From NCBI GenBank assembly GCA_038127595.1, contig JAYPIC010000017.1, positions 1-29,010 of the forward strand: a DNA stretch of 29,010 bases, given 5' to 3'. This DNA comes from a bacterium (GTDB lineage Bacteria > Fidelibacterota > Marinisomatia > Marinisomatales > UBA1611). The position numbers were made by a program, and so were the translations under genes. Positions 3,153-28,956 of this stretch are shown piece after piece (the first letter of the stretch is position 1; every line of letters begins with the position of its first letter). The notes beneath the pieces were generated by a model, which saw nothing but the letters and a program-made list of their open reading frames with translations, did not search any database and had not been told where the DNA came from.

Positions 3153-3488
3153 ATGAAGCGTGAATATTTAAAAATTTTGGATATTGGACATAGCGGGAAT
3201 TCTCCAGACAGAGCAATGATAATATTGGAAACGGCAGTTAGTCAGTGCTCGTTCGAAAATAAAACCAAAGTAATTAAAGTTATTACAGGGCATGGTTCCG
3301 GGAAGCTGCGTAATGCTGTAAGAGACTGGTGTAAAGATCAAGATGGTAGATTTAAAGATGTGATCTATGGTGAGGATTATGATATGTTTAATAAAGCTGC
3401 GGTTGATATGAGAAGTGATTGTGACCAGCCATACGACATTGATTTTGGTAGAAAAAATGCAGCTGTAACCTATATATGGTTAAGATGA
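3153..3488 (+). CDS. Stand-alone Smr (small MutS-related) domain protein
   Basis: LDIGH (LDLH-like), KVITGHGSGKLRNAVRDW and a C-terminal NAAVTYIWL strand. Confidence 0.75.
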   Translation: MKREYLKILDIGHSGNSPDRAMIILETAVSQCSFENKTKVIKVITGHGSGKLRNAVRDWCKDQDGRFKDVIYGEDYDMFNKAAVDMRSDCDQPYDIDFGRKNAAVTYIWLR

Positions 3489-3501
3489 TAGGAAGGTAAA
3501 A

Positions 3502-4077
3502 ATGGCAATAAAAAACAGTTTATTCATAATAATAGTCATTCAATTTTTTAATTGTGCTGGAACAAACTATAAAAAACTCAGCATTGAAAACCCCGCCAAA
3601 CTAGTAGCAGTTCAAGACTCTCTTCTTTTAGTTAGTGGCGACAATCAACGCATTAGAGATGCGTTGGTTACTGCAAATAATAGTGTTGCAAAAGGATATT
3701 TAAATGCCGGCGATTTAAAATCGGCTGCTCAATACTTTAATAAATCAACTTCTATAGATGGCGATAATAAGGACTCTAAATTCGGGCTTTTGATTGCCGA
3801 GGGGAGAATATTAATTAAAAAAGGCAATAAAAATGGAATATGGGATGCGATTGAAAAGTTTTCTAGAGCATCATCTCTATTCCCAAGAAATGGTGAGCCA
3901 TTTTACTGGATGGCTAAATCTTATACAAAGTTAGGCGATACAGAATTTGATTTAATTCTTGAATCATATGAAAAATCTTTAGCGCTAGATTTAGATGAAG
4001 GTTTACGATTAGAAGTTGAAAAAAACTATAAAATAGCTAAAAATCGAAAAAGTAAATTAGATTCTTTTTGGAAATAA
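3502..4077 (+). CDS. TPR-repeat protein, probable lipoprotein
   Basis: Basic N-terminus, hydrophobic stretch and FFNC-A lipobox-like Cys; TPR-like helices (AAQYFNKSTSIDGDN, AIEKFSRASSLFPRNGEPFYWMAKSY, YEKSLALD). SD-like GGAAGG upstream. Confidence 0.7.
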   Translation: MAIKNSLFIIIVIQFFNCAGTNYKKLSIENPAKLVAVQDSLLLVSGDNQRIRDALVTANNSVAKGYLNAGDLKSAAQYFNKSTSIDGDNKDSKFGLLIAEGRILIKKGNKNGIWDAIEKFSRASSLFPRNGEPFYWMAKSYTKLGDTEFDLILESYEKSLALDLDEGLRLEVEKNYKIAKNRKSKLDSFWK

Positions 4078-4129: not shown

Positions 4130-4158
4130 TTGACACGTGATTGATTATTAAGTAAAAT
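4130..4158 (+). promoter_or_regulatory. sigma70-type promoter of the motor-like operon
   Basis: TTGACA (4130-4135), 17-nt spacer, TAAAAT (4153-4158), with AT-rich sequence upstream; GAGG RBS at 4204-4207 before ATG 4214. Confidence 0.8.
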
Positions 4159-4213: not shown

Positions 4214-5368
4214 ATGAGATCACAATTGAGCTTTATTAGGCGAGTTGTATGCTCGCTGTATGTTCTGTTGCTTTTTGGGCACTCAGTGTCATTTGCTGCA
4301 GAAAAATATGACTTAAAAGGTACTGTTAGAGGTATAGATGATAAGGTAACTGTTGAACTTGCTGGTACTAAAAAAGATGACAAAACCAATAGAGATGGTG
4401 AGTTTAAGTTAAACAATGTTTTGGAAGGCGAATATACTTTACAGGTCATTGCTGACAAAAAAGTAATTCATGAACAATCTATTAAAGTAGATAGTGACAA
4501 TGATAATTTAGAAATTAACGTTGGCTCTTCATCTGCTATAGTTGATAAGACGATCATTTCTGCTGCAGCCACAAGTTCTGTTAGTCAAGAAGTTTCTTCA
4601 GTACCTGTTCCCCAAACAGCAGAAGCTAGCGGAGGAGCATCTAATGATTTTATTTTAAATGAACTTAATTTTGAAATAAAAAAACTAACAGCAGAGTTCA
4701 AGCATCTAAGTAGAGAAATGGATGATCTTAAAGCTTTAAGTAAAATGTGGATCAATCCATTAACTATTTATTCGAAAGAAATAATTTTAAAAAATGGTAG
4801 TACAGTTTTTGGGAAAATTGTATATCAAGATGATAAATCCCTAAAAGTTGAGACCTTGGTTGGTTATTTAATAATAAAGAGAGATGAGGTAGTTCGAATT
4901 GTTGATAATGTTATAACCGAAGATCAGCAAGAATATGTTCCAGAGCAAATTAGAGAAAGTTATGCTCCACCTCCTATGCCCAAATTGACTGTTCCTAAGT
5001 ACACATCTTCAAGTGTCTCTAATAGAGATGCTGGTGAAAAGTTCTCAGCCAATTGCGTTTTAATGGGTAACATATCAGAAAAAAAGGATACACAAGGGAA
5101 TGTTGTTTTTAATGGTGAAATTAAAAACATAGGTGGTAGAAGAGCAGATTTTGTAAAAATGGATTTTGTATTTAGAAAAAATTGGAGCGGAGAAACCCGC
5201 ACATTGACAACATTCATACAAGGTTCTTACAATACTTTCGATAGTGGAATTGTTTCTGATGCTAGCCTGTTGCCAGGAGCTCTAGGGAAGTTCGAATTGT
5301 ATGTTCCTCAAGACTTTGGGTCTTTCATTGGTTATTCCTATGTAATTGATTGGGAAGAGTATCAGTAG
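4214..5368 (+). CDS. Exported multidomain protein: carboxypeptidase-regulatory-like beta-sandwich, coiled coil, small beta domain, C-terminal Ig/FxLYD-like domain
   Basis: Signal peptide ending SFA-AE; LKGTV...TNRDGEFKLNNVLEGEYTLQV (prealbumin-like fold); heptads LNELNFEIKKLTAEFKHLSREMDDLKAL; IILKNGSTVFGKIV; VVFNGEIKNIGG...LLPGALGKFEL. Confidence 0.6.
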   Translation: MRSQLSFIRRVVCSLYVLLLFGHSVSFAAEKYDLKGTVRGIDDKVTVELAGTKKDDKTNRDGEFKLNNVLEGEYTLQVIADKKVIHEQSIKVDSDNDNLEINVGSSSAIVDKTIISAAATSSVSQEVSSVPVPQTAEASGGASNDFILNELNFEIKKLTAEFKHLSREMDDLKALSKMWINPLTIYSKEIILKNGSTVFGKIVYQDDKSLKVETLVGYLIIKRDEVVRIVDNVITEDQQEYVPEQIRESYAPPPMPKLTVPKYTSSSVSNRDAGEKFSANCVLMGNISEKKDTQGNVVFNGEIKNIGGRRADFVKMDFVFRKNWSGETRTLTTFIQGSYNTFDSGIVSDASLLPGALGKFELYVPQDFGSFIGYSYVIDWEEYQ

Positions 5369-5378
5369 AAAATATTTT

Positions 5379-6260
5379 ATGATAATAAAATTACTATATA
5401 TCATTTCAGTATCTCTTGCTTCATATGTCTTCGGCCAAGATGTAGACGAGAATACTTTTCTACCTGATATGGGAGTAGTTATTCAGTCTGCGGATAAGTC
5501 TAGCAAACCAGAGCCTCCATTAGAAAAAAACCGTGTAGTAAAGTTGAACAATATGACTGATAAAAAAGAATCTAATTTTGTTTTTAAAGCTAAAGCATCT
5601 GATATGATTTCATCCATTGATAGAATTACTAGCCATGTTAGCAATCTAGAAAAAGATTATCAGTCCAAGATAGAACAGTTAGAAGCAGAAAATTCCAATT
5701 TAAGAAATCAAATTATCAGTTTAAACCATAGACTTAATTCAGAAATATTAAATGTTAGTTCAACCGAAGTTGAATCAGTCAAGCCAGAAATTGAAGTGTC
5801 TCTTCCACTAGAAATATCATCCGCTGACAACGGTATTGTTGAAGAAGTTGATCCTCAGACAGAAAATATTAGTCATAAAATAAAACTTAAAGATTTTGAT
5901 GAAGATCTCTATATAGAAGGTGTTATACATTATAATAATGAAAAGTTTGATGAGTGTATTGAAAATTTAGGAGTACTTCCTTTTGAAAAAGGTGAGCCTA
6001 GAAATGCTACAAAAGGATTATTTCTGCTTGCTGATTCTTATGAAAAAATTGGAAGGTACAAGCAGGCTTTGCTTTGTTTAGAAAAATTAACATCGTTTAA
6101 TGACCCTCTCTATTCTGAATTAGTTCTTTTTAAAAAAGGAATAATTTATAGAGATATTGGTATGAGGGATAAGGCTCAGAAAGTGTTTCAAACATTAGTT
6201 AACTTTTACCCTGATAGTGAGTATAAAGCATTTGCTGAACAGGAAATACAAAACATATAG
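5379..6260 (+). CDS. Exported coiled-coil + TPR protein, CpoB/YbgF-like architecture
   Basis: ATG 5379 preferred over TTG 5346 because it puts a signal peptide (MIIKLLYIISVSLASYVFG-Q) at the N-terminus. Coiled coil IEQLEAENSNLRNQIISL; three C-terminal TPRs ending AQKVFQTLVNFYPDSEYKAFAEQ. Confidence 0.7.
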   Translation: MIIKLLYIISVSLASYVFGQDVDENTFLPDMGVVIQSADKSSKPEPPLEKNRVVKLNNMTDKKESNFVFKAKASDMISSIDRITSHVSNLEKDYQSKIEQLEAENSNLRNQIISLNHRLNSEILNVSSTEVESVKPEIEVSLPLEISSADNGIVEEVDPQTENISHKIKLKDFDEDLYIEGVIHYNNEKFDECIENLGVLPFEKGEPRNATKGLFLLADSYEKIGRYKQALLCLEKLTSFNDPLYSELVLFKKGIIYRDIGMRDKAQKVFQTLVNFYPDSEYKAFAEQEIQNI

Positions 6261-6267
6261 CATTTAA

Positions 6268-7647
6268 ATGAATAGCAAAAAAAATATATTATTTATACTT
6301 ATATTTTTGTCAAGTATGATTTTTGCATCTGCTCGAGTTGCTTACACTCGCCCTGGTTTAATGATGAGAATTCCAACATCTAGCGTTGAAAAAGCTCCTT
6401 ATATTTTTAGGACTGGCTTTGGGGTAGAGCTCCACAATTTTGACCCCATCAACACAGCTAAAGGTGTTTACTTTGATATGGAATTTGCAAAAGGATTTTC
6501 TGCAGGATTTTCTGCTGTACAAGGGGGAGATACGACAGCTTTAAATTTGATTTCTGAATCTCAATATTCTCCACAAGTAGAATTTGGGTTTCATTTTCAA
6601 CAAAGAATTTTTGTTTATAATGATATTTCTCTTTCAGCAGGTTTGCAAGATATTGTCTTCCAAAACAACCAAGACGACGAACAAGTTTTAAGTTTAAATA
6701 CTGACCTTTTATCTTTTTTTCTAGTGCTTGCTAGTGAGAAAGATTTAGGTGATTATAAGATGAGCACTTTCATGGGTTTCGGTACTGGAGGCCTAGGCCC
6801 GATGGATAGTGTCAAAGTAATAAGTGATTCAGCACAAACGGCAAATGCGGGTGTCTTTGTTGGATTCTTATTGAAAACGCCCTACTTCGGTAGAACTGGT
6901 GGAATGGATATTGTGGGTGAATTCGATGGAACAGGTGTCAATGTGGGACTCCGCATCCCCCTTACCTCGGATTACCGCCTGAACCTTGGGTTCGCCCACA
7001 TAGAGCGTTTACCTAGCTGGAAGACTCGCTATTGGACTGGTCATCCAGCATTTACTGTGGGTTTTGATATGGCAGTACCAAGAGTAGGTGGCGCGTTGCG
7101 ATCCACTTCTAGTGGTCCATCTAATCAGCCTTTGCCGTTAGGTAATGCGTTTCGTTCTGAAAGCGGCTCTATCCCTGCTTATATGGATTCTACGATTGCG
7201 ATGGCTGATTTTACCGTATTGTCGCTAAGAGACTCTATGTCCATGATGAATAATGAAATGCGAAATTTGATGGTACAATTATCTGCTTTGGAGCAAGAAT
7301 CACAATTTCTTGTGGATTCATTGAAACAGCTAAAACTCAGTAAAAATGTCCAAGAAAAAAATATGAATGAGGCTATGAGACACTTATCAAGAAGCCTTAG
7401 ATATTTTTACGCAGGTGATTTTCGTGAGGCACTAAAGGAAGTTGATTTATCATTGGAACTGAAACCTGATTTAGCTTTAGCTTACGCAAGGCGTGGTTCT
7501 ATATATTATAAGTTAGGTGATGTTCAAAGAGCCACGATAAATTGGAATCTCGCACTTAGGTTAGATCCTGAGTATGATGATGTCAGGAATATTTTAAAGG
7601 CGCTTCATGAGAATCGTCTTAAAGAAGCTAATTTGTTTGAGGAGTAA
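6268..7647 (+). CDS. Exported protein: putative outer-membrane beta-barrel (YjbH-like) N-domain, coiled coil, C-terminal TPRs
   Basis: Signal peptide; amphipathic Gly/aromatic strands (VEFGFHFQQ, GVFVGFLL, IVGEFDGTGVNVGLRIPLTSDYRLNLGF, FTVGFDM); coiled coil MNNEMRNLMVQLSALEQESQFLVDSLKQL; clear TPRs LALAYARRGSIYYKLGDVQRATINWNLALRLDPE. Confidence 0.6.
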   Translation: MNSKKNILFILIFLSSMIFASARVAYTRPGLMMRIPTSSVEKAPYIFRTGFGVELHNFDPINTAKGVYFDMEFAKGFSAGFSAVQGGDTTALNLISESQYSPQVEFGFHFQQRIFVYNDISLSAGLQDIVFQNNQDDEQVLSLNTDLLSFFLVLASEKDLGDYKMSTFMGFGTGGLGPMDSVKVISDSAQTANAGVFVGFLLKTPYFGRTGGMDIVGEFDGTGVNVGLRIPLTSDYRLNLGFAHIERLPSWKTRYWTGHPAFTVGFDMAVPRVGGALRSTSSGPSNQPLPLGNAFRSESGSIPAYMDSTIAMADFTVLSLRDSMSMMNNEMRNLMVQLSALEQESQFLVDSLKQLKLSKNVQEKNMNEAMRHLSRSLRYFYAGDFREALKEVDLSLELKPDLALAYARRGSIYYKLGDVQRATINWNLALRLDPEYDDVRNILKALHENRLKEANLFEE

Positions 7648-7650
7648 AAC

Positions 7651-8439
7651 ATGGATATTGCTTTAATTATAGGAGTTATATTTGGTTTTGTTTGTATGAT
7701 AGGTAGTATTGCTTATGCTCTTTTTGTTGAGGGTTCAGCAGGGGGATTTGGTAACTTTCTATCTGCGCCAAGTTTTGGAATTGTATTTGGAGGTATGATT
7801 GCGTCTATATTTGTGGCATTCCCAATGCCTCATGTTGTCGCTCTAGGAAAAGCTATCGGTGCGGTGCTAAAGCCTGCAGATGATAAAATGGGGCCACTTG
7901 TAGATGAAGCTGTTGAAGTAGCTGAAGTTGGTAGAAAAGGTGCAGCTGACCTTGAAAAATCTGTTGATGGTATAAAAAATTACTTTTTTAAGGATGGTGT
8001 TCAGATGGTTGTAGATGGCTATTCTTTAGACGAAATAACTGAAATCATGGAAACTAGAATTGAATATAGAGAAAAAAGAGAAAACGTTCAGAAATCAATG
8101 TTAAAGTCAATGGGTGATTTAGCTCCAGCATGGGGTATGGTAGGTACTCTTATTGGTCTTGTACTTATGTTAGCTGGTTTTGGGGGTGAAGGAGGAGCAG
8201 ACAACTTAGGTGGTGGTATGGCTGCAGCTCTAATTACCACTCTTTATGGTGCTGTTTTTGCAAATTTATTTTTTCTACCAATGGCAGATAAGATGGGCAA
8301 TAAAACTACTCAAACATCGATGTCAGCAGCGTTATTAGTAGAAGCTGCTAGGTTAATCCATCAGAAAAAGCATCCTTTAATTGTTCGTGAAAAATTAAAT
8401 TCATTCATACCTCCTGGAGAGTGGAAAACAGAGGGCTAA
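7651..8439 (+). CDS. motA: Flagellar-type stator A subunit (MotA/PomA family)
   Basis: Four TM segments; MD...IG N-terminus, F.S.PSFGIVFGG, RKG...LE, FFKDGVQMVVDG, APAWGMVGTLIGLVLML, MAAALITTLYGAVFANLFFLP and HPLIVREKLNSF. Confidence 0.93.
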   Translation: MDIALIIGVIFGFVCMIGSIAYALFVEGSAGGFGNFLSAPSFGIVFGGMIASIFVAFPMPHVVALGKAIGAVLKPADDKMGPLVDEAVEVAEVGRKGAADLEKSVDGIKNYFFKDGVQMVVDGYSLDEITEIMETRIEYREKRENVQKSMLKSMGDLAPAWGMVGTLIGLVLMLAGFGGEGGADNLGGGMAAALITTLYGAVFANLFFLPMADKMGNKTTQTSMSAALLVEAARLIHQKKHPLIVREKLNSFIPPGEWKTEG

Positions 8440-8448
8440 GGTTTTCTT

Positions 8449-9330
8449 ATGGCTGGCGCAGAATTTAAAAACGGATACAAAAAAGGTTTTGAAGATGGGG
8501 CTAACTCTGTTGAAGAGGGGCTTCCTGGATGGTTCGGAACTTTTGCAGACATGATGACATTATTATTTGCATTTTTTGTATTACTTGCTGCTATATCCAC
8601 TATGGATCCTGTAAAACTTCAAGAAATGGCAAATTCTGAGGGCAAGTCACTAGGGAGCAAAATCAAAGCCAGCGGAAAAGCTGAAGAAGAAGGTGAGTTT
8701 GAACCAATTAAAAATTTGGCTGAAATGAAAAAAGAGATGGAAGAAACTATCGAGGAGATGAAGAAAGAGAATCCAAAAGGTGACCCTCCAATCGATATTC
8801 AAACTAGCTCAAAAGGTCTAATAGTAAATATCAAAGGCGATTATGCTTTTCCTATTGGTAAAGCCTCTATGAAAGAAGAGTTAAAAGGACTTTTAGATGA
8901 AGAAATTATACCAAAAATTCAATTAAGCCCTTTTCAAGTAGAGGTAGCCGGTCATTCTGATTCAGATAAAATGCCAAAAAAATGGAGAAAGAACTTTGCT
9001 ACTAACTGGGAACTTTCTGCTGCAAGAGGTGCTAGTGTGGTTCGTTATATGATTGACAAGGGAGTACCCGCACCACGATTATTGGCTGCAGGTTATGGTC
9101 CTTGGGCTCCTCATGGACTTGATAGTGTAAAAAAGCAAAACCCAATGTGGAATCCTTTAACATTAACTTGGAAAGACCCTGTTAAGACTGCAGACGGGAA
9201 AGAAATGCCAACTGTTTTAAGTCTAAATAAAAACGAAAAAATGAAATCTAAAAACAGAAGAATTCAAATTACTTTTTTAAATCCGCCACATCATGGTAAG
9301 GGGCGGTCAGCAACAAGCTATGAAGATTAA
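8449..9330 (+). CDS. motB: Flagellar-type stator B subunit (MotB/PomB family) with OmpA-like peptidoglycan-binding domain
   Basis: WFGTFADMMTLLFAFFVLL (conserved Asp34), plug helix DPVKLQEMANS, VEVAGHSD, NWELSAARG, GYG and NRRIQI. Confidence 0.93.
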   Translation: MAGAEFKNGYKKGFEDGANSVEEGLPGWFGTFADMMTLLFAFFVLLAAISTMDPVKLQEMANSEGKSLGSKIKASGKAEEEGEFEPIKNLAEMKKEMEETIEEMKKENPKGDPPIDIQTSSKGLIVNIKGDYAFPIGKASMKEELKGLLDEEIIPKIQLSPFQVEVAGHSDSDKMPKKWRKNFATNWELSAARGASVVRYMIDKGVPAPRLLAAGYGPWAPHGLDSVKKQNPMWNPLTLTWKDPVKTADGKEMPTVLSLNKNEKMKSKNRRIQITFLNPPHHGKGRSATSYED

Positions 9331-9351
9331 ATACATACCGAGGAGTATTTC

Positions 9352-11205
9352 ATGATAAAAATAGTTTCAAATATTAAAAAAAGATTAGCGGTTTTCTTAC
9401 TGTCTGCTCTTTTAATAGGCCAAGGGTCTGGCTACCTAGCACAAAAGCTTATGGTAGAAAATAATATAAGAGAAAGAATTAAAGACGCTCTTTCTAAGAT
9501 TATTGACAGTAATAAATATGTTATTAACGTTGATATTGATCTAGATATTAGTGATGAAGTGGAAGAGCAAATCACAGTTTTGTCAGAAAAAAATTCAAAC
9601 CAGTCTGCTAATGATATGCCTGAAGAAAAGAACACTGTAGAAGAATCTTTATCAAGTATTCAGCAATCAATAGAATCAGAAGAAGAATCTAGCCAGTCTG
9701 GTTACTCTGTTGGGTTACCTATTCCTGGGTTTGAAATGGATTTTACGAATTCAAATAAAGCTTCAAAAAAAGCCGAAGAACCAAAGCCTCCAGTAATGTC
9801 AGTTGAAACAAAGAAACCAATTGAAGTTACTGATAAGAGTAGTAGTTCTAATGAACCTCGGGTTGACAAAATTTTGTCTAGGACAAGACCATCTAGAGCT
9901 GAAGTAAAAAAGATGTATATTAGTTTAATTTTACAAGAGGGAGCTGCTCCAGAGCTTATCGAAAATATCAGACAATTAACTATGGCCGCTGCAAAATTTG
10001 ATAGAAACCGTGGTGATAAGCTAACTATCATGACTGCTAGTTTTAGAGAAAGAAGAGATCAGCGCTCAGCTGAACAGATCATGCTGAAAAACATAGCAGA
10101 AAAAATTGAACTTCTTGAGCAAAAAAGAGAAATTGAAGAAAATACCCAAGATGCTACCTGGAAAGATGAATTAACTAGATATAGAGAAGAAGAGGCGGCT
10201 AGAAGAGAGGATGATAGAAAGTTTTTTGAGGGACAAATTTCACAATTAGAACAGCAAGCCAAAGATCGCGCTTATGCTCAAGAGAAAAAGGACATGCTTT
10301 TAAGAGACTCTTTAAAGCTAAAAAAATTAAATGATGAAATTGTTGCTTTGAAATCAATGCTTAAGAGCGCCGAAAAACGTGATAGTTTAAAAACCGTTAG
10401 CAAGCAAGAACGTATAGATTCTTTAAGGTATGTTAGCCTTAGTACTGAGCTTGATGAGTTAGCAAAATCACTTCAAACTGCAGTTGTTTCAAAATCTAAA
10501 GATGAAGAAGTGAAGGCAAAGCGTAAAATTCAAGCTGAAATGGCTGAGAGAGAAAAACAGAAAGAAAAAAGAGAACAAGAAATTGCTGACAAGATTCGTG
10601 AACTTGATAGCGTTCAAGAAGAGCTAGATAAGTTGCATCAAGATATGGAAAAAGAAAGTGGAAATACTTTCATCATCTTAATTGTTCTTGGTGCTTTGGT
10701 ATTTATTTTGATAGCAGCTTTAATATTTGTTTTGTTAAGAAATAATAGCAGGCAAGCACCTGTTCCTCCTTGGATGATGCCTCCACCACCGCGTAGACCA
10801 AGAAGGAAAAGAAGAGAGGCACCAAATAAAGAGAAAGAGTCTAAACAAAATTCAAAAACTGAAGAACCAGCATCAAAGTCTCAGTCTGAGGAGCCTGTAG
10901 TTACGCCACCTGCACCTCAGCCTGAGCAGTCCGCTGATCAAGAAGTAACAGGCGCTAATAAAGAAGAATCGCAGCCTGAAAGTTCCTTGCCACCATCGAG
11001 TGATAATGATCCAGATGTGGTCAGGAGTGAAATAAATGATATACGCAAATCCGTTGTCTCTATGAGTGTAGGTCAACCGGATAGGACTACCACAATAGTA
11101 AAAGAATGGTTAGAACAACCAGAACCTACACCGCCAGCTGAACCTGAGCAAGAGGCACCTGCTGCTGATGCAGATAGCGATGGTTCTGAAGAGAAAGAAA
11201 AGTAA
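9352..11205 (+). CDS. Atypical FliF-like M-ring protein (RBM3/beta-collar only, long coiled coil, TM helix, FliG-binding tail)
   Basis: VENNIRERIKDALSKIIDSNKYVINVDIDLD, LPIPG, VDKILSRT...VKKMYISLIL and IENIRQLTMAAAKFDRNRGDKLTIMTASF match the FliF C-terminal RBM3 pattern. TM at aa ~440-462. C-terminal VVSMSVGQPDRTTTIVKEWL matches the FliF P-x7-W-L tail. Directly upstream of fliG; GAGGAG RBS. Confidence 0.78.
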   Translation: MIKIVSNIKKRLAVFLLSALLIGQGSGYLAQKLMVENNIRERIKDALSKIIDSNKYVINVDIDLDISDEVEEQITVLSEKNSNQSANDMPEEKNTVEESLSSIQQSIESEEESSQSGYSVGLPIPGFEMDFTNSNKASKKAEEPKPPVMSVETKKPIEVTDKSSSSNEPRVDKILSRTRPSRAEVKKMYISLILQEGAAPELIENIRQLTMAAAKFDRNRGDKLTIMTASFRERRDQRSAEQIMLKNIAEKIELLEQKREIEENTQDATWKDELTRYREEEAARREDDRKFFEGQISQLEQQAKDRAYAQEKKDMLLRDSLKLKKLNDEIVALKSMLKSAEKRDSLKTVSKQERIDSLRYVSLSTELDELAKSLQTAVVSKSKDEEVKAKRKIQAEMAEREKQKEKREQEIADKIRELDSVQEELDKLHQDMEKESGNTFIILIVLGALVFILIAALIFVLLRNNSRQAPVPPWMMPPPPRRPRRKRREAPNKEKESKQNSKTEEPASKSQSEEPVVTPPAPQPEQSADQEVTGANKEESQPESSLPPSSDNDPDVVRSEINDIRKSVVSMSVGQPDRTTTIVKEWLEQPEPTPPAEPEQEAPAADADSDGSEEKEK

Positions 11206-11222
11206 GGGTAGGAGGTTTAGAT

Positions 11223-12167
11223 ATGATAACAGATTATAATCGCCTATCGGGGCTTCATAAAGTTGCAATTCTTTTTTCAGTGCTAGGTGAAAGCCTTGCT
11301 ATGTCGCTTATTAAGGGTTTATCTCGTACTGAGGTAAGAAAAATAAGAGCTACTATTCGAGAAATGGATAGCGTTTCGTTTACGCTGAAAAGACGAATAA
11401 TGGAAGAATTCTATTTTGGTTTTTTAAGTGAACAATTTTCTGAAGAAGGTGGAGATGATGAGGATGAAGGACCCATCAAGCCATTTGAGTTTTTAACTGA
11501 AATGACTGATGAGCAGCTCGTTGCACTTCTTGCAAATGAAGATGTCCCAGTAATTGCTATAGCATTAGCTCAGCTAGACTCATCCAAAAGAATGTCCATA
11601 CTAGAACGTATGAAACCTGAAGAAAAAGGGAAAGTATTAATTGAACTTGGTAGTTTGCAGGATGTTCCTTTAGAAGCGATAGTAGAGGTTGCGGGTAAAT
11701 TAAAAGAAAAAGCATCTTACTTACCCAAGCCAGTTGAGTTTTCTAGGGGCGGAGCCAAAGAGATAGCTGACTTAATTGGAGAGATGAGTGCAGATGAAGC
11801 TGAAAGATATATGCAAACTCTTCAAAATGAAAATCCTGAACTATATAAAGATGTTAAAATGTTAGTTCTAACTTTTGAGGATATTTTGGCTAATTTCCCA
11901 GATGGAATTCTAAGAGATCTTTGTAATAGTGTTGAGCTTGATGCATTAGCAATGGCCTTGAAGGGAATTGAACAAGAAACTGTCGACAGAGTTATTGGTA
12001 ATTTACCTCAGAAAAAACAAGCTATGTTTGAGCCCGTTGAAGGTCCAAAACCCAAGAGGGAGGTTGATGATGCTAGAAAAATCATTGTCACTGCGGCTAA
12101 AGCAATGGAAAAAGAAGGTGCTTTTAATTTAGCAGATATGATGGGTGGTGGAGAAATGATTGAATAA
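11223..12167 (+). CDS. fliG: FliG-like rotor protein
   Basis: LSGLHKVAILFSVLGE (FliG-N), PFEFL, GG linker (SRGGAKEIADLI), ENPEL...TFEDI, LAMALKG, GP...EVDDARKIIV and EGAF; AGGAGG RBS. Confidence 0.9.
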   Translation: MITDYNRLSGLHKVAILFSVLGESLAMSLIKGLSRTEVRKIRATIREMDSVSFTLKRRIMEEFYFGFLSEQFSEEGGDDEDEGPIKPFEFLTEMTDEQLVALLANEDVPVIAIALAQLDSSKRMSILERMKPEEKGKVLIELGSLQDVPLEAIVEVAGKLKEKASYLPKPVEFSRGGAKEIADLIGEMSADEAERYMQTLQNENPELYKDVKMLVLTFEDILANFPDGILRDLCNSVELDALAMALKGIEQETVDRVIGNLPQKKQAMFEPVEGPKPKREVDDARKIIVTAAKAMEKEGAFNLADMMGGGEMIE

Positions 12168-21001: not shown

Positions 21002-23989
21002 ATGGGAAAAATCTCAAAATTAGTCGCTCTCACTTTGTTAATGTCATTTGCGTTATCGCAAACGACAGGTAAAATAAGGGGAACAGTAACCTCAGCAGAT
21101 GGGCAACCACTTGCTGGTGCTAACGTCATTGTTGATGGTACAACAAAAGGTGCCGCTACTGACGGTGAAGGTAATTATACAATATTAAATGTTGAAGCTG
21201 GTTCGTATAGCGTTACTGCATCATACATTGGATATCAAAGCAGTACAGAATCTAATGTATCAGTTAAGGTTGACCTTACTACTCCGCTGAGTTTTGCAAT
21301 GCAGACATCAGCTGTTGAAGGTGAAGCTGTTACAATTGTTGGTGAGAAAAGACTCATTGAGAAAAGTGCTACAAACTCTGTTAGATCTGTAAGTTCTGAA
21401 GAAATTCAAAACTCTGCTTCAAGAAGTGTTTCTGGCATGCTTGATATGCAGGCTGGTGTTAATATTACAAACGGTAGACTCTCTATTCGTGGTAGTAGAG
21501 CAGAAGAGGTTGCTTACACTCTTGATGGAGCATCAATTACTGACGTGGTAAATACTGGTAGAGATGTATCTGCTATTCCTGAAGCTCTTGCAGAGATTTC
21601 TGTTGAGTCTGGAGGATTCGGTGCTCATATTGGTGGTGCTAACTCAGGTGTTGTTAGACAGACATTAAGAACTGGTGGTAACGAAGTGGCGGGGACTGTT
21701 CGTTTTGAAACTGGTGATTATGGCCATACTGATCTAACTGCAACAGTAGGAGTTCCTATTGGAGATAAGGTTAAAACTTTTATTGCGCTTCGCAGTAATC
21801 ATGTTGATGATTGGAATCCAACATACTACACAGATTTTAAAATTAATGATGGTCAGCCTCTAGAAAGTACAGTCTCTGGTAGCACTCCTGATGGTGAAAC
21901 AGTAGTGGTTGATTTTAAATCAGGCGGTAAAGATGGCGTTGCTCATAGAGCTCAAGATATTTTACAAATCAATGCTACTGGAACAGTCGATCTAGGGCCA
22001 TTAAACTTGCGTCTATCCGCAGTAGTTGATAACAATACTTATGAAAGTAATAGTCTACCAATATACTATATGCACAATACAGAGAGGCTACCTAAGACAG
22101 AAAGAAAACTTTCTATGTATAACGCTAGGGCAAACTACTTTTTAAATCCAAATATGCTTTTATCCGCAGGGTTAAGCACATTTAAGCGCACATATGAAAA
22201 ATATGATGATGCTATGGGTAAGCCAGATGGATTTGGAGATCTACTTGGTTGGTATGATTCAACTTCAGTTGCTGCAGCTGGTGTAGATGCTTCTTGGTGG
22301 GCAGGTGGAAACACTAATTTTTCTGTACCAGGAGCTACATACATTTCCCCAGCACCTTATTACGTAGCTAACACATTTGCTTTTTCCAGACCAGGTGATA
22401 TTGCTACTGACTATGATAAGAATGAGCGTTCTTCTTTCGGTTTTGATGCTGGGTTAACCTGGCAAAGAGGTGATCATGAAATCCGCGCAGGGTTTGATTA
22501 TAAGAAATATACTTACCGTGTTTATGAATTAAGTACAACTGCAATGTACAATATCAATAAAGCGATTGCTGATGGTGATTACACGAGAGAAGAGGCTGTT
22601 AGCGGTGATAATGCTCAAGTAACATCTGATCTATCACTATATAATAGAGATGGTCAGATAGGCTATGATGATTATGGTAATGAGATTAATGATGGTTTTG
22701 ATGGTCCTCGTGAGCCAACAGTAACATCTTTCTATGTTAATGACAAATACGAAGCTGGAGATTTAGTATTAAGTGCAGGTGTTCGTATTGATAATTTTAT
22801 GATGGACGATTTTAAAATGAAAGATCCTGCTAATCCAGGTTGGGATCAATCAAATCAAGGTATAATAGCAGATGAGTTCGAAGAGTCTGAAACAAAAAGT
22901 GTGCTTCAACCACGTCTTGGTCTTGCTTTCCCTGTTTCTGATCAAATGGTCTTTCATTTACAGTATGGTAAATTCGCTCAAATGCCAGAACTTGATCTGC
23001 CATATGCATCTACTCGCTATATGCATTTAGTTTGGGGTGGTCAGAACTATACTCCTGATCCAATGGGTTTTGACCTTGATCCAATTGAGACTACTCAATA
23101 TGAAGTAGGTATGAGTTATCAGTTCTTGCCTTCTGCTGCGATTGACGTAACAGCCTTTGCTAAAAATACTACTGGTCAGGTGGTTGTTGGTAAAAATGAG
23201 GCAGTTGACATTTCAAACACATATGGTGTAGCTCAAGATGCTTTCTATTACAAGAATGGTGATTTTACTACGGTGAATGGTTTTGAGTTCACTCTTAGAA
23301 CTCGTAGAGTTAGCAGATTACAAACATTTGCTTCTTACACATGGTCAGATGCGAGAGGAATTAATTCAGATCCTAACACAGGAGCTGGTAATATTGCTCA
23401 GGATCTGTTGAGCCCACCGCCATTAATGATTTCACCACTTTATTATCATAATAAGCATCGTGGCGCGATAGCATTAGATTATCGTTATGGTTCGGATGAT
23501 GGCCTACTAAGTGGTCTTGGTTTTAATTTTGAATATAAATTCAACAGTGGTCATCCGTATACATTGAGCGATGGTGGCATGGGTCAGCGTGCAGCTGATG
23601 AAGGAGCAATTCTTGCAGATGCTCGTTCTCGTGAACCACAAGAGTCAATTGGCGGATCTACTACTCCATGGCAGTACTACGCTAATTTGAAAGTTGATTA
23701 CAAGTTATCACTAGGTGGAGTCGGCGTTACTCTTTTCGCCTATATAGATAATCTGTTTGATACAAAAAATGTTATCAATGTTTACTCAAGATCAGGTAAT
23801 GCTTATGATGATGGATTTTTAACAGATCCAGCATTAAGCTCTGAGATAGTAGCAGCGAATGGTCAGACTTATGTTGATCTTTATCGCAACGTTAATCTAG
23901 AAAATAGGCAGCATTATATGAACGATTTTGGATTAGATGTTTTTGCTACTCCACAAATTGTGAAAATGGGTGTTTCCGTTAATTTCTAA
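21002..23989 (+). CDS. TonB-dependent outer membrane receptor with N-terminal carboxypeptidase-regulatory-like domain
   Basis: Signal peptide; GKIRGTV..ADGQPLAGANV..DGT.KGAATDGEGNYTI; plug IRGSRAEEVAYTLDG; barrel LSAGVRID, QPRLGLAFP and NLFD; C-terminal Phe (GVSVNF); GGAGG RBS. Confidence 0.93.
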   Translation: MGKISKLVALTLLMSFALSQTTGKIRGTVTSADGQPLAGANVIVDGTTKGAATDGEGNYTILNVEAGSYSVTASYIGYQSSTESNVSVKVDLTTPLSFAMQTSAVEGEAVTIVGEKRLIEKSATNSVRSVSSEEIQNSASRSVSGMLDMQAGVNITNGRLSIRGSRAEEVAYTLDGASITDVVNTGRDVSAIPEALAEISVESGGFGAHIGGANSGVVRQTLRTGGNEVAGTVRFETGDYGHTDLTATVGVPIGDKVKTFIALRSNHVDDWNPTYYTDFKINDGQPLESTVSGSTPDGETVVVDFKSGGKDGVAHRAQDILQINATGTVDLGPLNLRLSAVVDNNTYESNSLPIYYMHNTERLPKTERKLSMYNARANYFLNPNMLLSAGLSTFKRTYEKYDDAMGKPDGFGDLLGWYDSTSVAAAGVDASWWAGGNTNFSVPGATYISPAPYYVANTFAFSRPGDIATDYDKNERSSFGFDAGLTWQRGDHEIRAGFDYKKYTYRVYELSTTAMYNINKAIADGDYTREEAVSGDNAQVTSDLSLYNRDGQIGYDDYGNEINDGFDGPREPTVTSFYVNDKYEAGDLVLSAGVRIDNFMMDDFKMKDPANPGWDQSNQGIIADEFEESETKSVLQPRLGLAFPVSDQMVFHLQYGKFAQMPELDLPYASTRYMHLVWGGQNYTPDPMGFDLDPIETTQYEVGMSYQFLPSAAIDVTAFAKNTTGQVVVGKNEAVDISNTYGVAQDAFYYKNGDFTTVNGFEFTLRTRRVSRLQTFASYTWSDARGINSDPNTGAGNIAQDLLSPPPLMISPLYYHNKHRGAIALDYRYGSDDGLLSGLGFNFEYKFNSGHPYTLSDGGMGQRAADEGAILADARSREPQESIGGSTTPWQYYANLKVDYKLSLGGVGVTLFAYIDNLFDTKNVINVYSRSGNAYDDGFLTDPALSSEIVAANGQTYVDLYRNVNLENRQHYMNDFGLDVFATPQIVKMGVSVNF

Positions 23990-24043
23990 TTCTGATCATT
24001 TAATAGAATGATAACAAAAAATAAAAAAGAGGGTATAAAAACC

Positions 24044-27000
24044 ATGAAAATAAAGAATATTAAATTAATAGCAGCTGCGAGTATCATTCTTGTTTCTAGC
24101 TTGTTCTCAAAGGAACTAGCATCAACAAGTGTAAGCTCAAAAGCTACGCAAAGAGTGCTCAATGGTGAAAATCAATCACCTGGCATATCTGTACTTAACA
24201 TTAACAATATAGCATACTGGATTGGAAAAGATGGTGCATATACAACTGCGGGTAGTCCTAATGGTACTATGGCAGATTATCCTATCTTCACAGGAGGATT
24301 CATTTATTCTGATGGTATGTTATGGGGTGCTAAAGTTAAAGGAGATGGGCAAGGTGATGAAGTAAGAGTAGGTGGATCAACATATTATCATGGTTTAAAG
24401 GCAGGTAGAATAATAACAGATGCTGAAGGTAATGTGCTTGGTTCAGATGACCCAGTTAATAACCACGTATGGAGAGTTAGAAAAGACTGGGCAACTGCAG
24501 ACTTAACAGTTGATGCAGCAAATTATTATGCAGTTGGAACTGGTGATGTTTCAGCGGCTCAAATCTCAGTTGTTAAAAACCAATATGAATATGATTGGTA
24601 TAACTGGCCTGCAGCATGGGGTGCTCCTTACCATGATGTAAATGGTGATGGTAGTTATGATCCTGCTGTTGATGTCCCTGGATATCCTGGTGCTGATCAA
24701 ACAATGTGGACTATTGCTAATGATGTTCCACTTATTGTAGATGCTGCGGGAGATAGTATTGGTTATAGTAACACTGCTCCAAGTTTATATGGTGCAGATC
24801 CAATTGGTATTGAACTTCAAATTACTTTGTGGGGTTATGCTTTTGGTGCTAGTGACCCATTAGGTAATAATATTTTCAAGCAGGCAAAAATGAAGTATAT
24901 GGGTCTTCCAGGTACTCCTGATGGAGCGATGCTTGACTCCCTTTATTTTACGCAGTGGTCAGATCCTGACTTGGGTACATATACGGATGATTATGTAGGT
25001 TGCGATATCGATCTCTCTTTTGGATATGTATATAATGGTAATAGGTTAGATGGTGTTTTTAATGGAATTTTTAATTTACCTGTTCCAGCTGGTGGTTATG
25101 ATTTCTTGCAAGGTCCTCCAGATAACATGGATATAGATGGTGATGGTGATACAGAAGAATACCTAGGTATGACCTCATTTACATACTTCGGAGCTGGTTC
25201 TGCTATCTCTGATCCGGATCTATCATCTTACTCTGGTTCATTGCAGTTTTTTAATTTAATGGAAGGGTTTTTACCAAGACCCGAATATCCACAACAAATT
25301 CCTTTTACAGATCCTTCAACAGGTCTAGAAACAAAGTATGCTCTATCTGGTGATCCAACAAGTGGTTCAGGATGGATTGATGGTGTTCAGCTTCCACCTG
25401 GTGATAGAAGAATGGTTATGGCAAGTGGTCCATTTAGATTGAACTTAGGCGAGGAAGCAGATGTTGTATTTGGAATTGCTGGAGGAATGGGATTAGATAA
25501 TGTCTCTTCTGTTTCTGTAGCAAAATTCCATGATCTTTATGGTCAATATGCTTATGATCAAGAGTTTAATCTACCAAGTGCTCCATCTTCTCCAACAGTT
25601 CATGGAATTGAAATGGATGGATCAATTGGTCTTGATTGGGGCTCTGATGAGAACTCGGTTTCGGCAACAGAAGAAACTGTTAGCGCTGGGTTTGAATTTG
25701 AAGGTTATGTTGTTTATCAGCTACCATCTGCAAGCTCGCCATTGAGTGAGGCAGTTAAGGTTGCTACTTATGATAAAGTGAACTTAATCCAAAATATATT
25801 AGACCCATCTATTGATCCAATAACTGGTTTAGTTGTAGATGCAGCTAAGCAAACGGGTACAGATGCTGGCGTACAACGTTATTTTTCAACTGATTATGAT
25901 GAAGTAAGAGGGCGTCCAATGTCGAATGGTATTACTTACCATTTTGCTGTAACTGCTTACAGTTATTTAGCAGATAATGAAGGCAGTCCTTTTAAAACAT
26001 TAGAATCTGGAGAAACAAGAATTGCTGTTACTCCTAGATCTTTAAATCCTGGAGAAACAGTTCATAGTGAAATGAGCTCAGCAATCGACATTACTCATAA
26101 TGGAACTGCTAATGCCACAATCAATGTTAGTGTTATTAATCCTTATGAGTTAAAAGATGAGAGCTATAAAGTTACTTTTGATACTCAAGAGTATTATAGA
26201 GATCTTGATGGTACATGGAAAAAAGTTGTAGCTGGAAGAGCTGCTGGTAAAGCCTCAGATTGTACTGGTTCAACAGTAGCAGCTGCAGCAGTTGCTAGTG
26301 CTACCGTTGGAACTATTGATCTTGTATTAACTTTTACTATGAATTGTGGTAGTAACTGGGTTGATGGAATTGATTTTACATTCCCTGCAGATATGGGAAC
26401 AATAAATAGCTGGGAGGTAATTGGCCCAGGGAATTTATGTTCATATGGAACTGGTTCTGGTCAAAATTGTAATAATCTAGATGGTACTTTAGATGGTAAT
26501 ACTTTGCTGTTCGGTACTGTTAATACAGGTGGAGGTTTTGGTGCTTTTGAAAGTAGTAACACTTTTAAAATTAATTACACACCAGGTTCTGGCGGATACC
26601 CATATGATGTTGGCTTTACTGTTTATGATGATGCTTATGATGGCACGGAGGTAAATGCTGTAGGTACCGCAACAGTTGCAGAGCTGGGTTATGAAACAAA
26701 AACAGAGTATCATTGGAACCTTTCTACCGCAGGTGGTACAGTTCTGCTAGAAGACCAAACTTTCATTGGTGGAGCAGATTTATATGGAGGAGCTAGTGTT
26801 GATAATAATTCTAGCCTACACTATAATTCTGCAGCTGCAGTTACTGTTGATGGATTTCACTTAAATGTAGATGGTGGATATGATTCTCCTGTTGATTATT
26901 TTGAATCTGTTATAACTCCTGACGCTGCTAATGCAGCACTTTACGGAGAGTCTAGCTATGATTTAGGTTCCTATATCAGATATGGTTGGGCGTTAACATC

Positions 27001-27904
27001 AAAAGCTACTGATACATATGGTAACGGTTTAACTTCTGTAGATTTTCTACAAAGAGACATAGAAGTTAGATGGGTTGGTGAATTTGTTGATGAACCAATT
27101 ACAACAGACGCAGGTGTAGTTTATTATACAGCTGATACCAACCTCCCTCATTCATATGCATGGATCAGTGGTTCTAGATTAAGCCCATTAGCTGATCATC
27201 CAGATCCTGCTAACCCTGGTGACGGTTCTTCTTTCAGGGTAGCAGTTCCGTTTGAAGTTTGGGACATGGAAGATCCAAATGGTCCTAGACAAATTGATAT
27301 TGATATTTATGATAGAATACAGTCATTTAACTCAGGAGATACAGTGTATGTGTTTAATCCGTTTGATCGTATGTATACACACTTTATGATGGCTGATTAT
27401 CAAGAAGATGGTCTATATGAGGATGGACCAACTGGAACACCGACTGATTTCTTGACATGGAATATCGTATGGTGGGAAGCACAGTTTAACCAAGGTGATG
27501 TAGTTCGTTTTAATTACGCGAACCCAATTCAGCCTGGCGTAGATGAATTTGTCTTCAGCACAATGGCTAGTGAAACAGTCGCATCAAATGATGTATCCGA
27601 AGTTAGTGTTTATCCAAACCCATACTATGGAACTCATGAGCTAGAAAGTAGTCGTGCAGAAAAATATGTTTCTTTTAACCATTTACCGGTTGAGGCAAAG
27701 ATAGACATTTACTCTTTAGGTGGTGTTTTTGTTAGAAGTATAGACAAAAATGATGCATCACAATTTGCTCAGTGGGATCTTAAGAACCAGTATGGTTATC
27801 CAGTTGCAAGTGGTATGTATGTAGCACGGATCAAATCTGGTGGTGAAGAGAAAATCTTAAAAATTGCACTTGTTCAAGAAACACAAGTGTTGAAATACTA
27901 TTAA
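24044..27904 (+). CDS. Large secreted/surface protein with T9SS type-A-like C-terminal sorting domain
   Basis: ATG 24044 preferred (GAGGG SD, signal peptide MKIKNIKLIAAASIILVSSLFS). C-terminus VSVYPNPY...FNHLP...IYSLGGVFVR...WDLKNQYGYPVASGMYVARI...KILKIALV. Fn3-like segment (GYVVY...YHFAVTAY) and DxDGDG motifs. Confidence 0.8.
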   Translation: MKIKNIKLIAAASIILVSSLFSKELASTSVSSKATQRVLNGENQSPGISVLNINNIAYWIGKDGAYTTAGSPNGTMADYPIFTGGFIYSDGMLWGAKVKGDGQGDEVRVGGSTYYHGLKAGRIITDAEGNVLGSDDPVNNHVWRVRKDWATADLTVDAANYYAVGTGDVSAAQISVVKNQYEYDWYNWPAAWGAPYHDVNGDGSYDPAVDVPGYPGADQTMWTIANDVPLIVDAAGDSIGYSNTAPSLYGADPIGIELQITLWGYAFGASDPLGNNIFKQAKMKYMGLPGTPDGAMLDSLYFTQWSDPDLGTYTDDYVGCDIDLSFGYVYNGNRLDGVFNGIFNLPVPAGGYDFLQGPPDNMDIDGDGDTEEYLGMTSFTYFGAGSAISDPDLSSYSGSLQFFNLMEGFLPRPEYPQQIPFTDPSTGLETKYALSGDPTSGSGWIDGVQLPPGDRRMVMASGPFRLNLGEEADVVFGIAGGMGLDNVSSVSVAKFHDLYGQYAYDQEFNLPSAPSSPTVHGIEMDGSIGLDWGSDENSVSATEETVSAGFEFEGYVVYQLPSASSPLSEAVKVATYDKVNLIQNILDPSIDPITGLVVDAAKQTGTDAGVQRYFSTDYDEVRGRPMSNGITYHFAVTAYSYLADNEGSPFKTLESGETRIAVTPRSLNPGETVHSEMSSAIDITHNGTANATINVSVINPYELKDESYKVTFDTQEYYRDLDGTWKKVVAGRAAGKASDCTGSTVAAAAVASATVGTIDLVLTFTMNCGSNWVDGIDFTFPADMGTINSWEVIGPGNLCSYGTGSGQNCNNLDGTLDGNTLLFGTVNTGGGFGAFESSNTFKINYTPGSGGYPYDVGFTVYDDAYDGTEVNAVGTATVAELGYETKTEYHWNLSTAGGTVLLEDQTFIGGADLYGGASVDNNSSLHYNSAAAVTVDGFHLNVDGGYDSPVDYFESVITPDAANAALYGESSYDLGSYIRYGWALTSKATDTYGNGLTSVDFLQRDIEVRWVGEFVDEPITTDAGVVYYTADTNLPHSYAWISGSRLSPLADHPDPANPGDGSSFRVAVPFEVWDMEDPNGPRQIDIDIYDRIQSFNSGDTVYVFNPFDRMYTHFMMADYQEDGLYEDGPTGTPTDFLTWNIVWWEAQFNQGDVVRFNYANPIQPGVDEFVFSTMASETVASNDVSEVSVYPNPYYGTHELESSRAEKYVSFNHLPVEAKIDIYSLGGVFVRSIDKNDASQFAQWDLKNQYGYPVASGMYVARIKSGGEEKILKIALVQETQVLKYY

Positions 27905-27927
27905 TCACCATATAAACGGAGATAAAA

Positions 27928-28956
27928 ATGAAAAAACATATTATTACAAGTTTAGTAATTATAGCAATTAGCTCTCTAGTTGTTGCTCAGAGTTCTAGAA
28001 TGGGTTCTGCATCATCAACACAGCTGCTCGTAGTTCCTAGTGCTAAGCACCTTTCAGGTGGTGGTGCTGCTGCTACAGCAACAGGGATGGATGCTACATT
28101 TTGGAATCCTGCTGGATTGGCAATGAGTGAAAATAGTATTGATGCAATTTTCTCAAATCGTCAGTATTTCGCAGATATTGATAACAGCTTCTTTGGGGTT
28201 GCAACAGATATTGGTGAATATAAAATGGGTGTTACTGTAAGGACATTTAACATCGGTGATATAAATGAAACCACTGTTTATTTTCCGGATGGAACTGGTC
28301 AGGTATTTACGCCTAACTTTTCTATCCTAGGTGGAAGTATTGCTAAAAAGCTATCTGACAATACTAGCGTTGGCATGAACGTAAACTACGTTAGAGAAGG
28401 ATTTGGTAGAGTTTCTGCTTCTGGCGTTGCTTACGACTTAGGCGTTCAATACAAAGGACTACTTGGTAGAGAAAATTTAGATGTTGGATTTGCTCTTAAA
28501 AACTTTGGTAGCCCAGTCAAGTATGATGGTCCAGGCTTAGGTGTGTTTGCTGAACCTTCAGATGCTGATAGACCTTCAGAGTATTATAAAATTGATGCTG
28601 CTGCTTTTGATTTGCCTTTTACATTTGATATGGCTATTTCATATAATATTGCAGGAGCTGATCTAGGTGCGACTTACACTAGTAATTATTATTCTACAGA
28701 TGAGTTAAAGCTTAGTGTCGGATACAAAATTGAAGGGCTTGGCTCTGTAGGTGTTGGAATTCAAACCTCTGGAGCTGCTCAAGAGATTGAAGATGCTGAT
28801 GGTGATTGGTATACAAATCCATCAGATGGTGTATCTTTTGGCGCTTCCGTTGACCTATCTAGATATGTTGGAACTAATCTTAGTGTAGATTATTCTATGC
28901 TTCCAATGGGTGACTTTGGAACGAATTCTGTAGTTGCTTTGAGATTAGCATTTTAA
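27928..28956 (+). CDS. PorV/PorQ-family (FadL-like) outer membrane beta-barrel
   Basis: Signal peptide; LLVVPSAKHLSGGGA..A..GMDATFWNPAGLA hatch motif; AYDLGVQY, GFALKNFG, DLP and VDYS; C-terminal Phe. Confidence 0.85.
   Translation: MKKHIITSLVIIAISSLVVAQSSRMGSASSTQLLVVPSAKHLSGGGAAATATGMDATFWNPAGLAMSENSIDAIFSNRQYFADIDNSFFGVATDIGEYKMGVTVRTFNIGDINETTVYFPDGTGQVFTPNFSILGGSIAKKLSDNTSVGMNVNYVREGFGRVSASGVAYDLGVQYKGLLGRENLDVGFALKNFGSPVKYDGPGLGVFAEPSDADRPSEYYKIDAAAFDLPFTFDMAISYNIAGADLGATYTSNYYSTDELKLSVGYKIEGLGSVGVGIQTSGAAQEIEDADGDWYTNPSDGVSFGASVDLSRYVGTNLSVDYSMLPMGDFGTNSVVALRLAF

Follow-up and report, generated by a model that had tools for sequence, protein, structure and literature searches.

The last gene of a seven-gene operon in a stretch of 29,010 nucleotides from a Marinisomatota genome (assembly GCA_038127595.1; the whole stretch is referred to as the window) encodes a FliG homologue whose FliM-binding motif is degenerate. 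To our knowledge, all characterised FliG proteins work in flagella and sit on FliM. The question raised by this locus is whether such a protein belongs to a flagellar motor deprived of its switch or to a machine of another kind.

The FliM-binding site of the FliG homologue

The open reading frame at 11223-12167 contained the domains FliG_N, FliG_M and FliG_C in this order, all above the Pfam cut-offs (E values of 2.6e-16, 4.2e-11 and 4.2e-22). Against the flagellar FliG equivalog TIGR00207 the protein scored 104.5 bits, below the cut-off of 226.7. Its features are as follows.

11223..12167, + strand: FliG-like rotor protein, 314 aa, assigned as a non-flagellar paralogue (domains, separate clade, dN/dS 0.007-0.038)
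11538..11549, + strand: degenerate EHPQ site in the middle domain, E106-D107-V108-P109 (gaa gat gtc cca); E kept, H and Q lost
11643..11645, + strand: E141, aligned with R160 of E. coli, the Arg of the FliM-binding motif EHPQR; charge reversed
11748..11753, + strand: Gly-Gly linker G176-G177, kept (G in 95/95 and 93/95 operon homologues)
11865..11876, + strand: V215-L216-T217-F218, MFxF hinge in altered form, with the final aromatic retained but neither M nor the first F
11961..12056, + strand: C-terminal region facing the stator; basic residues retained at the E. coli K264 position (K247) and R281 position (K264)

Residues 102-118 read LLANEDVPVIAIALAQL, exactly as given by a sequence-only reading that had preceded this analysis, and its statement that EHPQ is absent from this FliG was correct, as EDVP occupies precisely that place. 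EDVP aligned without gaps with PDB chains 1lkv, 3hjl, 3ajc and 4fhr and corresponds to E125-Q128 of E. coli FliG. A fifth motif residue had been missed in that reading: R160 of E. coli is E141 in the window's protein. The accessible text of PMC6290876 names EHPQR as the FliM-binding site of FliG and gives the Vibrio residues as E144, H145, P146, Q147 and R179, the Arg lying 35 positions on; most substitutions of E144 or H145 leave the cells non-motile, and with R179H flagella are lost. For Salmonella, the accessible text of PMC11087270 describes that the middle domain of FliG binds FliM and that the switching signal runs from FliM through the middle domain to the torque helix. By this comparison, a FliG without the FliM-binding surface would receive no switching input derived from FliM.

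For the comparison with relatives, alignments were made of 95 distinct FliGs from operons of this type, 15 flagellar FliGs of the same phylum, 47 FliG-like proteins of canonical length (315-385 aa, from the best 150 matches, genomic context unverified) and 59 fused forms. One locus near-identical to the window, fragments below 250 aa and exact duplicates were left out of the counts. The closest homologues of the window's FliG came from 75 loci of Marinimicrobia/Fidelibacterota, which correspond to Marinisomatota (SAR406).

The glutamate of the motif was present in 94/95 operon FliGs, and H, Q and R in none of the 95. The Arg column held E in 82, D in 6, Q in 6, Y in 1 and R in 0 sequences. The loss is shared by all operon homologues read. 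The flagellar FliGs of the phylum had EHPQ plus R in 15/15 cases. Among the 47 canonical-length proteins of unverified context, EHPQ occurred in 34, Q in 46 and R in 45; none of them resembled EDVP, so that the many flagellar FliGs with EDVP-like motifs that would have spoken against the switch-less reading did not appear. EDVP itself is not a new conserved motif, since it was found in only 7/95 operon FliGs. In the paralogue, columns 107, 108 and 109 ranked at the 89th, 69th and 67th percentile of variability, compared with the 16th, 5th and 0th in flagellar-type FliG; read from the alignments, this is the pattern of a surface freed from constraint. The Arg column is an exception to the released variability, being again conserved, but acidic (88/95), and the stretch following E141 is conserved as G-x-L-x-x-[IV]-P-L-E. 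The dN/dS of fliG against five relatives was 0.007-0.038; in four of these comparisons dS was close to saturation. The operon fliG is under purifying selection (dN/dS <0.04).

The other two features named by the sequence-only reading, the altered MFxF hinge (VLTFEDI) and the kept GG linker, were upheld by alignment. The hinge is M233-F234-x-F236 in E. coli FliG and VLTF in the window's protein; across the operon homologues M occurred in 0/95 and F, W or Y at the last position in 95/95. On the stator-facing side, the E. coli K264 column held K in 95/95 and the R281 column K or R in 95/95. The window's FliG has a torque helix that lacks about 4 residues and carries Pro at the D288 column. The helix is shortened in 75/95 operon homologues, the window's among them, and the columns of D288/D289 and R297 are not kept there (D289 column: gap in 75/95, E or D in 20/95). 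The R297 column is unkept in the operon FliGs, though a basic residue follows. Deeper-branching operon FliGs retain the basic and acidic pair of the torque helix.

Distribution of the paralogue, FliM and fused forms

According to the sequence-only reading, loss of EHPQ should correlate with the absence of fliM from the genome. In a survey of 201 genomes of Marinisomatota, operon-type FliG (scored at E <1e-35) was present in 135, FliM in 49 and FlhA above its cut-off in 51. Both the paralogue and FliM were found in 35 genomes, the paralogue only in 100, FliM only in 14 and neither in 52, and the expected correlation was not borne out (Fisher p 0.49, the genomes being kin and not independent). 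Neither FliM nor FlhA was matched in 99/135 paralogue carriers. The paralogue was read from 24 of the 35 FliM-bearing genomes and had EHPQ in 0/24, which rules out that the motif was lost because the genome lost fliM. All 15 flagellar FliGs that were read, 11 of them from the same FliM-bearing genomes as the paralogues, had EHPQ, and in the 7 loci viewed the flagellar gene lay between FliF- and FliH-sized genes. Since the paralogue lacks EHPQ even beside FliM, and flagellar FliG keeps it, the sequences indicate that the paralogue is a second, non-flagellar FliG lineage and not a flagellar motor minus its switch. A fliG or motAB match in these genomes is not evidence of swimming.

The module was missing from 66/201 genomes, so the system is dispensable. 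It was found in 0/13 genomes of 0.8-1.1 Mb (family f3 / genus g6) and in only 5/31 genomes of family f24; these losses, in f3/g6 and most of f24, may hold a clue to what it does. Five genomes in which FliM, FlhA and operon-type FliG were all unmatched gave weak FliG matches (E 4e-12 to 5e-7), which may represent fragments or a third kind of FliG-like protein.

Of the 150 best-matching representatives, 35 were long proteins with a C-terminal FliG, whose names point to Fibrobacterota; the FliF ring domain was matched in 3 of the 21 that were scanned. In an atlas, giving leads only, look-alike fusion clusters were commonest in Balneolota, Bdellovibrionota, Bacteroidota, Pseudomonadota and Elusimicrobiota. 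A metagenome scan for fusions yielded 34 loci, 26 of which were read. In 20/26 loci the fusion was followed by genes for a likely barrel protein, a TPR lipoprotein, motA and motB, and 3 loci were cut short. The remaining three had the fused FliF-FliG, the barrel and the TPR lipoprotein with motAB missing alongside; their stator may be encoded elsewhere in the genome or lost. The fused forms had EHPQ in 0/59 and Arg in 0/59, and the K264 column was mostly lost. Homology between the Marinisomatota-type and fused-type barrels was not detected by hhalign (probability 1.2%), the match of the two proteins being confined to their TPR parts, and no solved relative of the fused-type barrel was found by sequence.

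In a FastTree phylogeny of 127 rows, a long branch (support 1.0, length 0.62) separated the paralogue together with the fused forms from all other rows. IQ-TREE on an 81-row subset concurred, with SH-aLRT values of 100 for the flagellar, 99 for the paralogue and 93 for the fused group, and of 100 for the branch with paralogue and fused forms together on one side. An origin of the paralogue as a duplicate of its phylum's flagellar FliG was rejected (p-AU 0.002, for a group named after the tree was seen and with long branches). The long branch to the paralogue clade may partly be an artefact. With the trees unrooted and long branches attracting each other, one early loss of the FliM site would be the simplest reading.

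The operon and its host genome

The operon consists of seven genes on the + strand, 4214-12167, in the order exported protein, coiled-coil/TPR protein, outer-membrane barrel-TPR protein, MotA, MotB, cut-down FliF and, as the last gene, FliG. Besides fliG, listed above, the following features were assigned.

4130..4158, + strand: sigma-70-like promoter match (11/12) upstream of the operon, a consensus match only
4214..5368, + strand: predicted exported protein, first gene; transthyretin-like sandwich, 37-residue helix, Sm/Hfq-like small barrel and C-terminal Ig-like sandwich (model pLDDT 80)
5346..6260, + strand: periplasmic coiled-coil and TPR protein, weakly CpoB/BamD-like; in 57/79 complete operons, dispensable
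6268..7647, + strand: predicted outer-membrane beta-barrel (aa 45-271), 77-residue helix and TPR (AlphaFold, pLDDT 78.7)
7651..8439, + strand: MotA/PomA-like stator subunit; R95, K96, E102, D122, R246; T166, T196, T197
8449..9330, + strand: MotB/PomB-like stator subunit; ion-binding Asp D34, plug, OmpA-like domain
9352..11205, + strand: cut-down FliF-like protein, 617 aa; likely signal peptide, C-terminal ring domain at about aa 33-235, helical stalk, TM at about 440-460, C-terminal helix
12194..12223, no strand assigned: GC hairpin between an A run and a T run, read from the sequence and not listed by the promoter-finding scan

The six-gene core was complete in 79/100 loci, and the remaining 21 were interrupted by a contig end. 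The first gene was present in the 79 operons complete to that gene. Fold searches with its product found common folds only (best Z 10.7, rmsd 2.1, 76 aligned residues). A paralogue of this gene with 25% identity lies on host contig C15 (25104-26189, - strand), where by eye it adjoins genes for a likely HEAT-repeat lipoprotein and a likely TonB-dependent receptor. The model of the barrel-TPR protein gave weak Foldseek matches to OMPLA, FapF, OmpG, NanC and TPR proteins. Its gene was found in 133/201 genomes, in 132 of them together with the FliG paralogue and in 1 by itself; FliG only occurred in 3 genomes and neither in 65.

The best matches of the stator were MotP/PomA and PomB. By alignment, R95, K96, E102, D122 and R246 of MotA correspond to the rotor-contact charges of PomA and were kept in 85-88 of 88 rows, and T166/T196/T197, corresponding to the Na+-site threonines of PomA, were present in 88/88 rows; in the accessible text of PMC10374538 these charges are described and the three threonines are tied to Na+ selectivity. 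D34 of MotB was found in 88/90 rows, the other 2 being gapped. The FliF-like protein matched Pfam YscJ_FliF_C (E 9.7e-10), and its profile matched residues 270-458 and, weakly, 552-579 of FliF 8z5s. The N-terminal half of FliF was unmatched, and the C-terminal helix resembles the FliF tail. In 90/90 rows the protein had one TM past residue 40, located 54-220 residues beyond the ring domain, a range that leaves aside one value of 307 from a probably mis-picked motif.

The promoter match is weak when taken alone, as the scan returned 36 sites compared with 30.3 +/- 5.7 in shuffled sequences. The hairpin is likely a two-way terminator between fliG and a convergent OPT transporter gene, as far as its sequence indicates. 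In 4 metatranscriptome runs, each from a different study, contigs covered the operon, some of them spanning fliF and fliG; this attests presence only and not level, strand or a single transcript. No gene for a cytoplasmic candidate partner was found within the operon at any locus read. Upstream in the window (3153-4077), genes for an Smr-domain protein and a TPR lipoprotein were observed; they often precede the operon in close relatives, though not phylum-wide. Downstream (21002-28956), a TonB-dependent-receptor-like gene, the gene for a 1298-aa protein with a weak type IX sorting-domain match and the gene for a PorV-like barrel lie in a row. Three operon-bearing contigs belong to records titled SAR86, Lentisphaeria and Thaumarchaeota; they are probably mis-binned Marinisomatota DNA, since by identity their proteins nest among those of that phylum.

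The absence of fliM and fliN claimed from the window held for the host genome, which is 95.8% complete. In profile searches that matched control genomes, FliM, FliMN_C, FliN/SpoA, CheC and CheW as well as FlhA, Flagellin_N and Flg_bb_rod were not found in it, and tblastn with E. coli FliE, F, H, J, L, M, N, O and P and with the N-part of CheA gave no match. E. coli FliI matched at three places with 25-30% identity, probably F1-ATPase subunits and a related ATPase. Of the earlier claim that this rotor has no CheY-controlled switching, the loss of the FliM surface stood in all homologues read, but its proposed link to the absence of fliM failed. FliM/CheY switching of the window's rotor appears very unlikely, since the FliM surface is gone and FliM, FliN/SpoA, CheC and CheW were not found in the host genome. 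Stand-alone receiver-domain proteins are present in that genome and could regulate the FliG system by another route. Host contig C8 (39807-41413, - strand) encodes another motA/motB pair, which has the ion-binding Asp and charges resembling those of the rotor contact. No rotor gene adjoins it, the flanking genes encoding a rhomboid-like protein and a 689-aa exported protein, and the pair might serve the same rotor as an additional stator. On host contig C76 (460-4829), likely prepilin-peptidase and PilB-like genes with a small receiver-domain protein beside them were recognised by eye; this gene set suggests type IV pili.

The proposed machine and its comparison with known systems

The FliG paralogue is probably a one-protein cytoplasmic rotor ring that is served by its own MotA/MotB in a non-flagellar, FliM-free envelope motor, and whose rotation we infer. 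With the same confidence, somewhat above even, the envelope machine is taken to work without switch, export gate, rod and filament. Sodium ions, judged by the three PomA-type threonines, would flow through MotA5B2 and turn MotA, the conserved charges of which would engage the C-terminal domain of FliG. FliG would be held on the C-terminal helix of the cut-down FliF, with the ring domain in the periplasm; in other phyla, FliF and FliG are one protein. Force would pass to the outer-membrane barrel/TPR partners, and the output, at a guess, might be the moving or releasing of a surface substrate. As there would be no CheY-P route without FliM, the default rotation would be in one fixed direction. 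H and Q would have decayed after FliM ceased binding, and the near-fixed acidic residue at the Arg position may keep FliM off the ring in flagellated cells too. FliF-FliG rings without FliM/FliN in flagellar systems have a floppy FliG part (accessible text of PMC6079021 and PMC10941966), so a stable FliG-only rotor would require additional changes. More boldly, and with belief and doubt evenly balanced, the system may be read as a natural minimal rotary motor, in which a FliG-only rotor on a cut-down FliF ring would be turned one way by a sodium stator and geared to the outer-membrane barrel. By the same evenly balanced judgement, it may form an old separate lineage across several phyla, existing beside the flagellum without cross-talk because the FliM site is erased and charge-reversed.

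In one rival explanation, MotAB would turn against a fixed or partial FliF-FliG and pull the outer-membrane partners in the manner of ExbBD-TonB or TolQRA, and FliM would then be dispensable because there is no full C-ring. The shortened torque helix in 75/95 operon FliGs, the lability of FliG rings without FliM/N (accessible text of PMC6079021 and PMC10941966), the weak likeness of the TPR partner to CpoB of Tol-Pal and the long helical stalk of the FliF-like protein are consistent with such a non-rotating puller. It is nevertheless unlikely, as the stator is of the flagellar type by its best matches (MotP/PomA/PomB), plug and OmpA-like domain, not of the ExbB/TolQ type, and as none of the three FliG domains has been lost, nor the GG linker or the FliF ring domain. 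Rather doubtful, too, is a rotor that is FliM-free but not one-way, being switched or braked by a new partner on a remodelled middle domain (E106, E141 and G-x-L-x-x-[IV]-P-L-E). The near-fixed E141 (acidic in 88/95) with the conserved stretch behind it, the kept GG hinge and the stand-alone receiver domains of the host agree with it, but columns 107-109 vary more than most of the protein, as expected of a released surface, and the operon offers no cytoplasmic candidate gene at any locus read. An equally doubtful proposal is that the module energises the type IX secretion system of the phylum in place of GldL/GldM. SprA was found in 199/201 genomes, GldM was not found in the host genome and was unmatched in all 201 genomes (though no positive control matched), and the window encodes a protein with a weak type IX sorting-domain match. 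However, SprA was still present in 65/66 module-free genomes and hence does not strictly co-occur with the module, no recognised type IX gene lies inside the operon, and look-alike fusion clusters are commonest also in Bdellovibrionota, Elusimicrobiota and Pseudomonadota, according to the atlas lead.

The two explanations that stay closest to the flagellum fare worse. That the paralogue is an accessory flagellar FliG, bound to FliM through a co-varied interface or joining the C-ring, is very improbable. It draws on the 35 genomes that hold both the paralogue and FliM and on the 13/47 canonical-length FliG-like proteins that deviate from EHPQ. Yet 100/135 carriers have no FliM match, flagellated carriers own a separate EHPQ FliG beside FliF/FliH-sized genes, 12 of the 13 deviants keep Q, and a clade with the phylum's flagellar FliG was rejected (p-AU 0.002, the group having been named post-tree). 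A decaying remnant of a lost flagellum, for which the alteration of several functional motifs could be cited, is hardly credible: dN/dS is <0.04, the frames are open and stop-free among the matches listed, and the gene is kept alongside intact flagellar genes and co-occurs with non-flagellar partner genes. The vestige reading was rejected on account of the purifying selection and the phylum-wide conservation.

Read as a FliM-free envelope motor, the system supplies a selected, phylum-wide FliG that is likely unable to dock FliM, and with it a natural test of whether FliG alone makes a stable torque ring, which default direction it turns in, and whether the switch was added later, to a rotor-stator pair that had been simpler. 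Its presence in two-thirds of the genomes sampled also suggests that an energy-using function of the envelope is widespread in this abundant marine phylum. A full-text literature search, outside which most subscription papers and supplements lay, found no published description of a natural FliM-independent FliG or of the operon, and the operon is unmentioned in the accessible text, supplements aside, of PMC12505986, PMC13277936 and PMC10359470. The assembly is built from parts of known families; judged by the genes and domains compared, it falls outside both the flagellum and the type IX motors.

The paralogue shares with flagellar FliG (T. maritima 1lkv/4fhr, A. aeolicus 3hjl, Salmonella 8umd; TIGR00207) the N, M and C domains, the GG linker and the K264 and R281 columns, and its gene directly follows a FliF-like gene. 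It differs in that EHPQR is reduced to E, MFxF is altered, the torque helix is mostly shortened and about 25 residues are missing between the N and M domains, and it falls below the equivalog cut-off and into a separate clade. Like the core of the flagellar motor, the system has a flagellar-type stator with rotor-contact charges and PomA Na+-site threonines, and the C-terminal ring domain and tail of FliF. In contrast to that motor, FliM, FliN, export gate, rod and flagellin were not found in the host and are not needed phylum-wide, FliF is without its N-terminal half instead of having two TM and three ring motifs, and the partners are barrel-TPR and periplasmic proteins. Engineered FliF-FliG rings (Salmonella PMC6079021; Vibrio PMC10941966, PDB 8z4d) likewise have no FliM/FliN, and natural fusions exist; in the accessible text of these papers the FliG part of the rings is labile and no function is reported, whereas selection acts on the natural system, which comes with a stator and outer-membrane partners of its own. 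With the 5:2 motors ExbBD-TonB, TolQRA, AglRQS, GldLM and ZorAB the system has in common an inner-membrane ion motor encoded together with envelope partners. These five are non-flagellar stators that have no FliG/FliF rotor. The classes of such motors are set out in PMC12505986, the accessible text of which contains no case of a flagellar-like stator paired with FliG outside the flagellum, the combination found here. If the reading as a minimal rotary motor is true, the system would be either the rotor-stator counterpart of the injectisome, in which a flagellar module was re-used whole, or a living sister of the motor that preceded the switch.
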